Part shown: positions 48,896 through 60,204 of the stretch, in pieces
How positions within the stretch are numbered: position 1 is the stretch's first letter
Layout: every line of letters begins with the position of its first letter
NCBI RefSeq assembly: GCF_035084215.1
Contig: NC_090345.1
Location: forward strand, 2,294,001 to 2,358,000
Length of the DNA: 64,000 bases
From: Heptranchias perlo
Taxonomy: Eukaryota
Reading direction: 5' to 3'
Position numbers and translations under genes: made by a program
The notes under the pieces: model-generated
Told to the model about the DNA's origin: nothing
The model's database searches: none
The model's input: the letters and a program-made list of their open reading frames with translations, nothing else

Positions 48896-49072
48896 GAGGG
48901 TCGAGTCCAATGGTTCCTGGAACTTACACAGATTTATCAGCCCAAGAACCGAAAGATCATGTGACAAGTGATGCGTCCTTGACTGTACATTATTCAAATG
49001 AAGGGAATAGTTTGCTCTGTTTCTGAACCTGTTTCTTTCCTTCCTGTGCTTTTGTCTCTGTTATTTATTTAG

Positions 49073-49198
49073 GAAATTAGCGGGACAAGTCCTGCAACTG
49101 TCGCTGTCTCCAACTTCACCTTCGATCAGAAGGCTGTCTTTGTGATCCACGGATATTTGGAAAATGGAGATGCCAGCTGGGTTATGGATCTGTGCAAG
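49073..49198 (+). CDS. Lipase coding exon 3 (EISGTSPATVAVSNFTFDQKAVFVIHGYLENGDASWVMDLCK)
   Basis: tttag acceptor, AAG|GTATGG donor, 126 nt; IHG(Y) oxyanion-loop motif. Confidence 0.92.
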
Positions 49199-52100
49199 GT
49201 ATGGACTGTGTATCTGTGCAGGGTATGGACTGTGTATCTGTGCAGGGTATGGACTGTGTATCTGTGCAGGGTACGGACTGTGTATCTGTGCAGGGTACGG
49301 ACTGTGTATCTGTGCAGGGTACGGGCTGTGTATCTGTGCAGGGTACGGACTGTGTATCTGTGCAGGGTACGGACTGTGTATCTGTGCAGGGTACGGGCTG
49401 TGTATCTGTGCAGGGGGTGGACTGTGTATCTGTGCAGGGTATGGACTGTGTATCTGTGCAGGGTACGGACTGTGTATCTGTGCAGGGTACGGGCTGTGTA
49501 TCTGTGCAGGGGGTGGACTGTGTATCTGTGCAGGGTATGGACTGTGTATCTGTGCAGGGTATGGACTGTGTATCTGTGCAGGGTATGGACTGTGTATCTG
49601 TGCAGGGGGTGGACTGTGTATCTGTGCAGGGTATGGACTGTGTATCTGTGCAGGGTATGGACTGTGTATCTGTGCAGGGTATGGACTGTGTATCTGTGCA
49701 GGGGGTGGGCTGTGTATCTGTGCAGGGTATGGACTGTGTATCTGTGCAGGGTCTGGGCTGTGTATCTGTGCAGGGTCTGGGCTGTGTATCTGTGCAGGAT
49801 ATGGACTGTGTATCTGTGCAGGGTATGGACTGTGTATCTGTGCAGGGTCTGGGCTGTGTATCTGTGCAGGGTATGGACTGTGTATCTGTGCAGGGTACGG
49901 GCTGTGTATCTGTGCAGGGTACGGGCTGTGTATCTGTGCAGGGTATGGACTGTGTATCTGTGCAGGGTATGGACTGTGTATCTGTGCAGGGTATGGACTG
50001 TGTATCTGTGCAGGGTATGGACTGTGTATCTGTGCAGGGTATGGACTGTGTATCTGTGCAGGGTCTGGGCTGTGTATCTGTGCAGGGTACGGACTGTGTA
50101 TCTGTGCAGGGTACGGACTGTGTATCTGTGCAGGGTACGGACTGTGTATCTGTGCAGGGTACGGACTGTGTATCTGTGCAGGGTACGGGCTGTGTATCTG
50201 TGCAGGGGGTGGACTGTGTATCTGTGCAGGGTATGGACTGTGTATCTGTGCAGGGTACGGACTGTGTATCTGTGCAGGGTACGGGCTGTGTATCTGTGCA
50301 GGGGGTGGACTGTGTATCTGTGCAGGGTATGGACTGTGTATCTGTGCAGGGTATGGACTGTGTATCTGTGCAGGGTATGGACTGTGTATCTGTGCAGGGG
50401 GTGGACTGTGTATCTGTGCAGGGTATGGACTGTGTATCTGTGCAGGGTATGGACTGTGTATCTGTGCAGGGTATGGACTGTGTATCTGTGCAGGGGGTGG
50501 GCTGTGTATCTGTGCAGGGTATGGACTGTGTATCTGTGCAGGGTCTGGGCTGTGTATCTGTGCAGGGTCTGGGCTGTGTATCTGTGCAGGATATGGACTG
50601 TGTATCTGTGCAGGGTATGGACTGTGTATCTGTGCAGGGTCTGGGCTGTGTATCTGTGCAGGGTATGGACTGTGTATCTGTGCAGGGTACGGGCTGTGTA
50701 TCTGTGCAGGGTACGGGCTGTGTATCTGTGCAGGGTATGGACTGTGTATCTGTGCAGGGTATGGACTGTGTATCTGTGCAGGGTATGGACTGTGTATCTG
50801 TGCAGGGTATGGACTGTGTATCTGTGCAGGGTATGGACTGTGTATCTGTGCAGGGTCTGGGCTGTGTATCTGTGCAGGGTACGGACTGTGTATCTGTGCA
50901 GGGTACGGACTGTGTATCTGAGCAGGGGGTGGGCTGTGTATCTGTGCAGGGTATGGACTGTGTATCTGTGCAGGGTCTGGGCTGTGTATCTGTGCAGGGT
51001 CTGGGCTGTGTATCTGTGCAGGGTCTGGGCTGTGTATCTGTGCAGGGTCTGGGCTGTGTATCTGTGCAGGGTATGGACTGTGTATCTGTGCAGGGTACGG
51101 GCTGTGTATCTGTGCAGGGTACGGGCTGTGTATCTGTGCAGGGTATGGACTGTGTATCTGTGCAGGGTATGGACTGTGTATCTGTGCAGGGTCTGGGCTG
51201 TGTATCTGTGCAGGGTACGGACTGTGTATCTGTGCAGGGTCTGGGCTGTGTATCTGTGCAGGGGGTGGGCTGTGTATCTGTGCAGGGTACGGACTGTGTA
51301 TCTGTGCAGGGTCTGGGCTGTGTATCTGTGCAGGGTACGGACTGTGTATCTGTGCAGGGTATGGACTGTGTATCTGTGCAGGGTACGGACTGTGTATCTG
51401 TGCAGGGTCTGGGCTGTGTATCTGTGCAGGGTACGGACTGTGTATCTGTGCAGGGTCTGGGCTGTGTATCTGTGCAGGGTACGGACTGTGTATCTGTGCA
51501 GGGTACAGACTGTGTATCTGTGCAGGGTCTGGGCTGTGTATCTGTGCAGGGGGTGGGCTGTGTATCTGTGCAGGGTATGGACTGTGTATCTGTGCAGGGT
51601 CTGGGCTGTGTATCTGTGCAGGGTCTGGGCTGTGTATCTGTGCAGGGTCTGGGCTGTGTATCTGTGCAGGGGGTGGGCTGTGTATCTGTGCAGGGTCTGG
51701 GCTGTGTATCTGTGCAGGGTACGGACTGTGTATCTGTGCAGGGTACGGACTGTGTATCTGTGCAGGGTCTGGGCTGTGTATCTGTGCAGGGTATGGACTG
51801 TGTATCTGTGCAGGGTCTGGGCTGTGTATCTGTGCAGGGTCTGGGCTGTGTATCTGTGCAGGGTATGGACTGTGTATCTGTGCAGGGGGTGGGCTGTGTA
51901 TCTGTGCAGGGTACGGACTGTGTATCTGTGCAGGGTCTGGGCTGTGTATCTGTGCAGGGTACGGACTGTGTATCTGTGCAGGGTCTGGGCTGTGTATCTG
52001 TGCAGGGGGTGGGCTGTGTATCTGTGCAGGGTATGGACTGTGTATCTGTGCAGGGTCTGGGCTGTGTATCTGTGCAGGGTACGGACTGTGTATCTGTGCA

Positions 52101-52593
52101 GGGTACGGACTGTGTATCTGTGCAGGGTACGGACTGTGTATCTGTGCAGGGTCTGGGCTGTGTATCTGTGCAGGGGGTGGGCTGTGTATCTGTGCAGGGT
52201 ACGGACTGTGTATCTGTGCAGGGTCTGGGCTGTGTATCTGTGCAGGGTACGGACTGTGTATCTGTGCAGGGTACGGACTGTGTATCTGTGCAGGGTACGG
52301 ACTGTGTATCTGTGCAGGGTCTGGGCTGTGTATCTGTGCAGGGTACGGACTGTGTATCTGTGCAGGGTACGGACTGTGTATCTGTGCAGGGTACGGACTG
52401 TGTATCTGTGCAGGGTATGGACTGTGTATCTGTGCAGGGTATGGACTGTGTATCTGTGCAGGGTACGGGCTGTGTATCTGTGCAGGGGGTGGGCTGTGTA
52501 TCTGTGCAGGGTACGGACTGTGTATCTGTGCAGGGTACGGACTGTGTATCTGTGCAGGGTCTGGGCTGTGTATCTGTGCAGGGTCTGGGCTGT
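49199..52593. repeat. 24-bp minisatellite (gtatggactgtgtatctgtgcagg and variants), ~140 copies, starting at the exon donor
   Basis: Direct periodicity; 8-aa periodic ORFs. Confidence 0.98.
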
Positions 52594-53269
52594 GGCCGCT
52601 CTGTCAGCCGGTCACTGTCACGTTCCTCTCCTTGCAGCCGTTGTGTGAAGGCCCTCTCCCACCGTGAAGTGATTCATTCAAACCCCAATTTTAACTTGGG
52701 GTGGGAATCGGGTGGGTGAGCAGGGGGTCACGGAGGGTAGCCAACCTTCCTGACCCCAGTGGAGTGAGACCCGGGAGACTGGAACGCACCTGCATGCCCC
52801 CCGGATGGCGTCCGCCTGGAACTGACGGGAAGTGGGAGCTGGGAGCGGACAGTCAGGTGAGAGGAGGCCACCCCCAGGGACTGAAGGAACGGTCCCCCCC
52901 TCACCCAGGGGAGGGTTACCAGGAGCACCTCACAATTGGTTGAGGTGGGAAGCCCAGGATTGGGGAGGCCTGAACTATCTTTGTAGAGACCAGAGGAGAA
53001 TTCCTGCTCCTTCTGGCCCCACTAAGAGAGTCAGGAGAAGGTAGGAAGGCTCGGCCTCTTTGGGTAACCTCTGACTCTGATTCCTCTTCCCGCTTGCTTG
53101 ACCTGGCGGGAAAGGCAGACTTCGTCTCCCCGCTCAGGCCCGTGGTCAAACTGGGGCCTGATGACCACCCTTGTTATATGTTAATGATCCCGTCCCCAGG
53201 ATTTGAGGCAGGGTCGCTGTGAGGCCAAATCAGTGGGCAGATATAAGATTGCCACGAGCAGAATTCAGG

Positions 53270-53525: not shown

Positions 53526-53586
53526 TTTTGTGATCCCCACGGTGGGTGCTGGGAAATGGTGAGGTCACCAAATTACTGGGAACCAT

Positions 53587-56064
53587 GGGTAAAGACTCAC
53601 TCTGGGTAAAGTCTCACTCTGGATAAAGTCTCACTCTGGGTAAAGTCTCAATCTGGATAAAGTCTCACTCTGGATAAAGTCTCACTCTGGGTAAAGTCTC
53701 ACTCTGGGTAAAGACTCACTCTGGATAAAGTCTCAATCTGGATAAAGTCTCACTCTGGATAAAGTCTCACTCTGGGTAAAGACTCACTCTGGGTAAAGAC
53801 TCACTCTGGATAAAGTCTCAATCTGGATAAAGTCTCACTCTGGGTAAAGTCTCAATCTGGATAAAGTCTCACTCTGGATAAAGTCTCAATCTGGATAAAG
53901 TCTCACTCTGGATAAAGTCTCACTCTGGGTAAAGACTCACTCTGGATAAAGTCTCAATCTGGATAAAGTCTCACTCTGGATAAAGTCTCACTCTGGGTAA
54001 AGACTCACTCTGGGTAAAGACTCACTCTGGATAAAGTCTCAATCTGGATAAAGTCTCACTCTGGATAAAGTCTCACTCTGGGTAAAGACTCACTCTGGAT
54101 AAAGTCTCACTCTGGGTAAAGACTCACTCTGGATAAAGTCTCAATCTGCATAAAGTCTCACTCTGGGTAAAGACTCACTCTGGATAAAGTCTCACTCTGG
54201 GTAAAGACTCACTCTGGGTAAAGACTCACTCTGGATAAAGTCTCACTCTGGGTAAAGACTCACTCTGGATAAAGTCTCACTCTGGATAAAGTCTCAATCT
54301 GGATAAAGTCTCACTCTGGGTAAAGACTCACTCTGGGTAAAGTCTCACTCTGGATAAAGTCTCACTCTGGGTAAAGACTCACTCTGGATAAAGTCTCACT
54401 CTGGGTAAAGTCTCACTCTGGGTAAAGACTCACTCTGGATAAAGTCTCACTCTGGATAAAGTCTCACTCTGGATAAAGTCTCACTCTGGGTAAAGACTCA
54501 CTCTGGATAAAGTCTCACTCTGGGTAAAGACTCACTCTGGATAAAGTCTCAATCTGGATAAAGTCTCACTCTGGGTAAAGACTCACTCTGGATAAAGTCT
54601 CACTCTGGGTAAAGACTCACTCTGGATAAAGTCTCAATCTGGATAAAGTCTCACTCTGGGTAAAGACTCACTCTGGATAAAGTCTCACTCTGGGTAAAGA
54701 CTCACTCTGGATAAAGTCTCACTCTGGATAAAGTCTCAATCTGGATAAAGTCTCACTCTGGGTAAAGACTCACTCTGGGTAAAGACTCACTCTGGGTAAA
54801 GTCTCACTCTGGGTAAAGACTCACTCTGGATAAAGTCTCACTCTGGGTAAAGTCTCACTCTGGGTAAAGACTCACTCTGGATAAAGTCTCACTCTGGGTA
54901 AAGACTCACTCTGGATGAAGTCTCACTCTGGGTAAAGAATCACTCTGGATAAAGTCTCAATCTGGATAAAGTCTCACTCTGGGTAAAGACTCACTCTGGG
55001 TAAAGACTGACTCTGGGTAAAGACTCACTCTGGATAAAGACTCACTCTGGATAAAGACTCACTCTGGGTAAAGACTCACTCTGGATAAAGTCTCACTCTG
55101 GATAAAGACTCACTCTGGATAAAGACTCACTCTGGGTAAAGACTCACTCTGGATAAAGTCTCACTCTGGATAAAGACTCACTCTGGGTCAAGACTCACTC
55201 TGGGTAAAGACTCACTCTGGGTAAAGACTCACTCTGGGTAAAGTCTCACTCTGGGTAAAGACTCACTCTGGATAAAGACTCACTCTGGGTAAAGACTCAC
55301 TCTGGGTCAAGACTCACTCTGGGTAAAGACTCACTCTGGATAAAGTCTCACTCTGGGTAAAGACTCACTCTGGGTAAAGACTCTCTGGGTAAAGTCTCAC
55401 TCTGGATAAAGTCTCACTCTGGGTAAAGACTCACTCTGGATAAAGACTCACTCTGGGTCAAGACTCACTCTGGGTAAAGTCTCACTCTGGGTAAAGACTC
55501 TCTGGGTAAAGTCTCACTCTGGATAAAGACTCACTCTGGATAAAGACTCACTCTGGGTCAAGACTCACTCTGGGTAAAGTCTCACTCTGGATAAAGTCTC
55601 ACTCTGGATAAAGTCTCACTCTGGATAAAGTCTCACTCTGGGTAAAGTCTCACTCTGGGTAAAGTCTCACTCTGGGTAAAGTCTCACTCTGGATAAAGTC
55701 TCACTCTGGATAAAGTCTCACTCTGGGTAAAGTCTCACTCTGGATAAAGTCTCACTCTGGGTAAAGTCTCACTCTGGGTAAATTCTCAATCTGGATAAAG
55801 ACTCACTCTGGATAAAGACTCACTCTGGGTCAAGACTCACTCTGGGTAAAGTCTCACTCTGGGTAAAGACTCACTCTGGATAAAGACTCACTCTGGGTCA
55901 AGACTCACTCTGGATAAAGTCTCACTCTGGGTAAAGACTCACTCTGGATAAAGTCTCACTCTGGATAAAGTCTCACTCTGGATAAAGTCTCACTCTGGAT
56001 AAAGTCTCACTCTGGATAAAGTCTCACTCTGGATAAAGTCTCACTCTGGGTAAAGTCTCACTCT
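53587..56064. repeat. 17-bp minisatellite (ctgg[a/g]taaag[t/a]ctcact) running into the next acceptor
   Basis: Direct periodicity. Confidence 0.98.
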
Positions 56065-56081
56065 GTTTTCTTCCCTTTGAG

Positions 56082-56216
56082 GCGATTCTGCGAGTGGACA
56101 ATGTGAACTGTATTTGCGTTGACTGGAGGGGAGGGTCTCAATGTCCGTTCAGCCAGGCTGCTCAGAACATCCGTGTAGTGGGGGCAGAAATCGCATATTT
56201 CCTTGATGTTCTGGAT
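56082..56216 (+). CDS. Lipase coding exon 4 (AILRVDNVNCICVDWRGGSQCPFSQAAQNIRVVGAEIAYFLDVLD)
   Basis: VNCICVDW and NIRVVGAE motifs; 135 nt; tttgag acceptor, GTAAGT donor. Confidence 0.92.
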
Positions 56217-60109: not shown

Positions 60110-60204
60110 GTGGGTGGTGTGAATGTTACTTAGACACGTGCCACTGGTGGGAATGAAACTCCCCACAGCACGCAGGGTATCGTTTAAAGGAAGACCGTCC
60201 TGTG

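Follow-up and report, generated by a model that had tools for sequence, protein, structure and literature searches.

The lipase-like gene and the array at its splice junction

The window analysed here, 64,000 nt of Heptranchias perlo contig NC_090345.1 (positions 2,294,001 to 2,358,000, forward strand), carries a gene of the pancreatic lipase family. One of its introns holds a 24-nt minisatellite at 49199-52594 on the plus strand, which consists of 141 full units plus 12 nt (TRF gives 142 copies starting at 49188). The features used below are as follows, with a slash in a motif marking the exon-intron boundary.

49073..49198, plus strand: coding exon of 126 nt (EISG...DLCK), ending TGCAAG, with the authentic donor AAG/GTATGG at 49198/49199
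49187..49210, plus strand: founding 24-nt segment, the last 12 exon bases and the first 12 intron bases
49142..52648, plus strand: read-through ORF of exon and array, 1168 codons plus stop
53586..56065, plus strand: unrelated second array in the same intron, 17-nt unit, 146 copies, ending 16 nt before the acceptor
56082..56216, plus strand: following coding exon (AILR...VLD), to which 49198 is spliced directly in contig X1
56993..56995, plus strand: codon for Gly in place of the lipase nucleophile Ser (GHGLG for GHSLG), residue 173 of protein P0001

The host gene encodes lipase and PLAT domains (PF00151, E 3e-130, and PF01477), and its best PDB match is 1rp1. The exons of this locus encode, one after another, P0001 (472 aa), which its source names a pancreatic lipase-related protein of Heptranchias perlo and which is the one member of its 90% cluster; in it DLCK is followed by AILR with no insert between them. 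In the Ser-Asp-His triad the Asp and His are kept and the Ser is replaced by Gly, and GHGLG is read in the window, on a second copy of the locus (contig C301, see below) and in both spliced contigs covering the site. Among the best 120 of 375 homologues, Asp and His are kept in all 120. The Gly is common to five ray orthologues (P0009 and P0012-P0015), whereas six other shark orthologues keep Ser, as does the paralogue P0108; two changes are needed on the tree, although its well-supported branches still allow one origin. Judged from these sequences, the gene is likely an elasmobranch pseudo-lipase in which the serine was lost twice or reverted. A narrow literature search for a serine-less elasmobranch lipase found nothing. 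On the minus strand, at about 39500-40170, the lipase gene is faced head to head by the first exon of a gene that we take to resemble TAF5; this exon contains a Pro/Ala-rich coding repeat.

The original prediction had described a donor amplified about 140-fold, in a unit copied from the junction itself and in phase 0 with the true donor, and all of this is borne out by the 141 full units, each made of 12 exon and 12 intron bases. Compared with the exon, the unit carries two changes, G to T at −12 and A to G at −2, and the G at −2 is present in 141/141 copies. The downstream sites read AGG/GTACGG (46), AGG/GTATGG (43), AGG/GTCTGG (33) and AGG/GTACAG (1), and the remaining 18 lack GT. Thus the predicted AGG/GT(ATGG/ACGG/CTGG) form holds for most units, but none of the 141 sites is the exact true donor AAG/GTATGG. 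Duplex energies, computed against the U1 5′ end, were −6.2 kcal/mol for the true donor, which is itself weak in U1 pairing, and −5.6 to −4.2 kcal/mol for the common copies; the three nearest copies belong to the strongest copy class, AGG/GTATGG, which is weaker than the true donor by 0.6 kcal/mol.

The array was also expected to be free of stops in the lipase frame, and indeed the ORF 49142-52648 stays open for 1168 codons. However, five of the six reading frames of the array are stop-free, and in the 894 kb around the window the unit was divisible by 3 in 56 of 128 arrays, of whose frames 232/336 were stop-free, so that an in-phase unit with an open frame is expected by chance in about 30% of local arrays. 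For these two reasons the open frame is uninformative, and the 24-nt length and openness of the array are presumably coincidental. The read-through ORF had no match as a protein, nor any in RNA-like contigs. The derivation of the array from the exon-intron junction, on the other hand, exceeds chance.

Origin, variation and surroundings of the array

When a 20-nt piece of the unit was searched for across the 3.25-Gb genome, 115 places matched exactly (85 in forward and 30 in reverse orientation); these are the counts expected from the window array together with the C301 copy (100 of the 115 places are among the matches listed). Because the genome matches are those of these two arrays, the unit arose at the lipase locus and is not a member of a dispersed family. 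C301 is an unplaced contig of 46.7 kb that repeats the window from about 33,000 onward with ~99% identity in unique DNA (12 of 13 unique stretches compared, one anchor missing). Its array has 63 units in an order unlike that of the window array, and its fourth unit, at +96, is the exact donor AAG/GTATGG (1/63 units, against 0/141 in the window). Since the ~99% identity includes the flanking DNA, C301 is likely the second haplotype, left uncollapsed in the assembly; read in this way, the difference of 63 and 141 units makes the array likely a VNTR. The window allele also contains an exact internal duplication of 32 units (units 7-38 equal units 40-71), which is what unequal exchange would leave. 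At C24:16.7 Mb a paralogue shows this AAG/GTAT junction but no array, so the donor predates the repeat.

The array may have begun as a local 24-nt duplication across the junction, with a 2-nt TG microhomology at its ends, and would then have expanded through slippage and unequal exchange; the region is rich in repeats, lies near a contig end and is probably subtelomeric. At −2, an early change from A to G would have made the copies pair slightly less well with U1 than the true donor does. Tandem repeat makes up 39% of the surrounding region, where 15 arrays reach at least 100 copies, and 3.5% of the 60 kb around the paralogue. In shark genomes simple tandem repeats are commoner on short chromosomes, and chromosome ends are distinct, according to the available parts of one survey (PMC10620051).

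The lipase intron consists of arrays for 85% of its length when both are counted, and measures 6,883 nt in the window and 4,009 nt on C301. The 17-nt array contains CTCAC 128 times, with the last A at −22 from the acceptor, and 64 donor-like sites TGG/GTAAAG; its CTCAC is presumably branch-point-like. In a later intron of the gene about 1,610 copies of a 30-nt unit fill 48 kb (from window position 60202 to about 2,402,500 on G000:C24), against 267 copies on C301, and 3′ of the gene lies a 59-kb array of a 19-nt unit.

The four common variant sites of the units fall at donor positions +2, +3, +4 and +7, with none at the other 20 positions, a pattern poorly predicted by neutral drift. One explanation is that the copies compete for U1 and that selection favoured unit variants with a damaged donor. 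The −2 change in every unit would fit such erosion, and only 1 of 40 local arrays with four or more common variant sites had all sites inside a third of the unit; with the variant events grouped by us, 8 of 10 fell within −3 to +8 (post hoc p about 0.03). However, the best-placed competitors, units 1-3, are the least damaged. Moreover, +4 is a CpG site, +2 and +3 change together, and the +3C/+7G type equals the array's own 3′ end, so that independent variant events are few; and three of six arrays with exactly three variant sites cluster as well, the test again being post hoc. We therefore regard such erosion as unlikely.

Donor-spanning arrays are not confined to the lipase gene in this genome. 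A collagen IV NC1 exon (L106:337-1514, G000:C6 at about 110.692-110.693 Mb), one exon among 24 C4-domain matches, is followed by CAG/GTTAGT 31 times in a 34-nt array; the donor is repeated as in the lipase array, but the unit length is no multiple of 3 and each copy of the donor is exact. In the 894 kb, 183 arrays were searched for exon-like stretches whose donor recurs in the array; a loose filter let through 58 array ends, and 25 hand-picked candidates were scanned against Pfam, with the lipase exon as control. Apart from the control, none gave a convincing Pfam match, and no second donor-spanning case was verified in that region. The best candidate lies at L069:2995-4107, where an exon-like stretch of 128 nt (L069:2995-3122) follows a long pyrimidine tract and ends CAC/GTAAAT. 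This donor is repeated in a 24-nt unit of 41 copies with an in-frame stop, and the candidate exon had no homologue, no atlas match and one weak unannotated match.

Use of the first donor

RNA material consisted of three contig runs (X1, X2 and X3) from one sample, presumed to be RNA, in which joins across GT..AG introns are present. A contig of X1 (431 nt, depth 6) covers 49071-49199 and then continues into the exon at 56082; its path is 46880/49073-49198/56082-56216/56948, and its loose ends match neighbouring exons. The contig is spliced, because 56216 is joined to 56948 across GT..AG, and reading back from the acceptor the end of the 49198 exon precedes 56082. The X2 contigs stop short of the junction and X3 gave nothing there. 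No contig entered the array in the three runs, a lack of cover to which we give no weight as evidence of absence, and no other loose end was found at the acceptor, as far as contigs, which drop rare variants, can tell; donors beyond about unit 5 would be visible only through such loose ends. The most upstream donor is thus the one mainly used in one spliced contig from one of three runs of one sample, an observation that concerns the main form only. Since this sole assembled transcript across the intron uses the first donor, the array copies are likely silent, with the caution that the RNA support amounts to one contig of depth 6 from one sample; minor use of the first few copies may be compatible with the contig data.

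We consider it most probable, at roughly 0.8, that the locus carries a variable-number minisatellite of an exon-intron junction, here in 141 copies, nearly all of whose extra donors probably go unused, since the spliceosome probably selects whichever donor comes first after the exon. Two other roles for the units were rejected. A translated, coding VNTR was set aside on the absence of repeat units from contig X1 and P0001. Recursive-splicing sites have AG/GT juxtaposed after a polypyrimidine tract, and ratchet sites of this kind were rejected here, the unit reading CAG-G-GT without such a tract.

The original prediction proposed instead that the nth donor inserts n Cys-containing octapeptides, giving a ladder of in-frame isoforms that would diversify the protein. 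The 24-nt unit, its phase 0 and the lack of stops suit this idea, and a protein without its nucleophile serine may be under constraints other than those of an enzyme. But frame and openness are found together in about 30% of local arrays, the insert is absent from the transcript and from the annotated protein, and the copy number differs between the two arrays. The position of the junction is also unfavourable: it falls in a Cys-x10-Cys loop, the cysteines being 11 residues apart, and by alignment both cysteines stand at fixed spacing in 118 of the best 120 of 375 homologues, none of these 120 having a longer loop at the junction. These cysteines, which we take to be the Cys90-Cys101 disulfide of human pancreatic lipase, would likely be disturbed by octapeptide inserts that bring a further Cys. 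Exons have a size limit of about 300 nt, and with retained units the exon would pass 250 nt once n reaches 6 and 300 nt once it reaches 8. In narrow literature searches, too narrow to show absence, no precedent for an in-frame ladder was found. The isoform ladder is thus unsupported, X1 using the 49198 donor, P0001 lacking an insert and the loop being invariant in length, and as a functional device it is extremely improbable.

Leaky use of the nearest copies deserves more weight. On this account the first one to four pseudo-donors would be used in a minority of transcripts, as noise and not as function, and the resulting proteins, 8-32 residues longer and in frame, would probably misfold; a small leak of this kind would be compatible with first-donor choice. 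The nearest AGG/GTATGG units are only 0.6 kcal/mol weaker than the true donor, and the exact AAG/GTATGG at +96 on C301 would imply a larger leak from that allele, because its fourth unit recreates the true donor. Cryptic-donor exons span 50-250 nt in the available parts of one report (PMC1557585), which would allow n up to 5, and use of pseudo-donors is on record: two further donors are used in IFI6 and in CBS (PMC1557585), and one unit is retained in ABCA7 (PMC5954066). Some leak is therefore plausible at the lipase junction too, and exon definition together with a 5′-to-3′ preference would confine it to the first few units. Against it stand the three runs, which gave no matching contig or loose end, and the finding that human F7 pseudo-donors stronger than the true donor still failed to compete, as reported in the same parts of PMC1557585. 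We hold such a leak to be possible but doubtful.

A stronger form of the same idea is that the pseudo-lipase makes use of the first in-phase pseudo-donors for Cys-octapeptide isoforms that escape nonsense-mediated decay, in amounts that depend on the allele, one haplotype having a perfect donor at unit 4, and that selection on the donor positions tunes the leak. This combination is very unlikely.

Relation to known donor-spanning VNTRs

The preferred reading, a junction minisatellite with nearly silent extra donors, has close precedents, and the shark array belongs to the known kind of donor-spanning intronic VNTR represented by F7 intron 7 (IVS7) and ABCA7: its unit spans the boundary, the donor is reiterated with GT kept in 123/141 copies, and the copy number varies between 141 and 63 with C301 inferred to be the other haplotype. 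The following comparisons draw on the accessible parts of the two reports. In the 37-bp VNTR of human F7 intron 7, the first unit spans the exon-intron boundary, and only the first of the identical donors is used, whatever the repeat number; in-frame pseudo-sites were ignored too (Borensztajn et al. 2006, PMC1557585). The F7 and shark arrays have in common a first unit across the boundary, a donor repeated into the intron, a polymorphic length and use of the first donor. F7, however, has 5-9 units whose donors are identical to the true one and whose unit is not divisible by 3 (PMC1557585), whereas the shark array has 63-141 units of 24 nt that are all in phase and nearly all weakened at −2.

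The 25-bp VNTR in human ABCA7 intron 18 also starts at the donor and ranges from 12 to about 427 units (PMC5954066), so that it resembles the shark array in start and unit size and covers its 63-141 copies. Retention of one unit is the only form described in those parts of the report, and long alleles raise skipping of the next exon (PMC5954066); unit retention would shift the frame in ABCA7 but not in the shark lipase. Among other minisatellites, those of IFI6 (6-16) intron 2 and CBS intron 13 are the two that allow use of two further donors, while in LMNB2 and PDGF intron 4 only the true donor is used (PMC1557585). All four span a donor like the shark array, but with 10-25 units (PMC1557585).

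The F7 in-frame pseudo-donors, unused in the parts of PMC1557585 that describe them, speak by analogy against the isoform ladder as well. The other original suggestion, that the array is a dense set of U1 decoys that must be silenced, comes nearer to the data than the ladder, but the F7 experiments favour a positional preference for the first donor over active silencing.

As it stands the array is one more donor-spanning VNTR, with a copy number inside the ABCA7 range, and as such it matters little. Because every pseudo-donor is in phase and the array has no stop, it could nevertheless serve as a clean natural test, outside mammals, of whether the first donor is preferred; for the same reason any leak would escape nonsense-mediated decay and be countable. 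Such a test could draw on two alleles of unequal length, of which one has a single perfect decoy. The loss of the nucleophile serine may merit more attention than the array itself.
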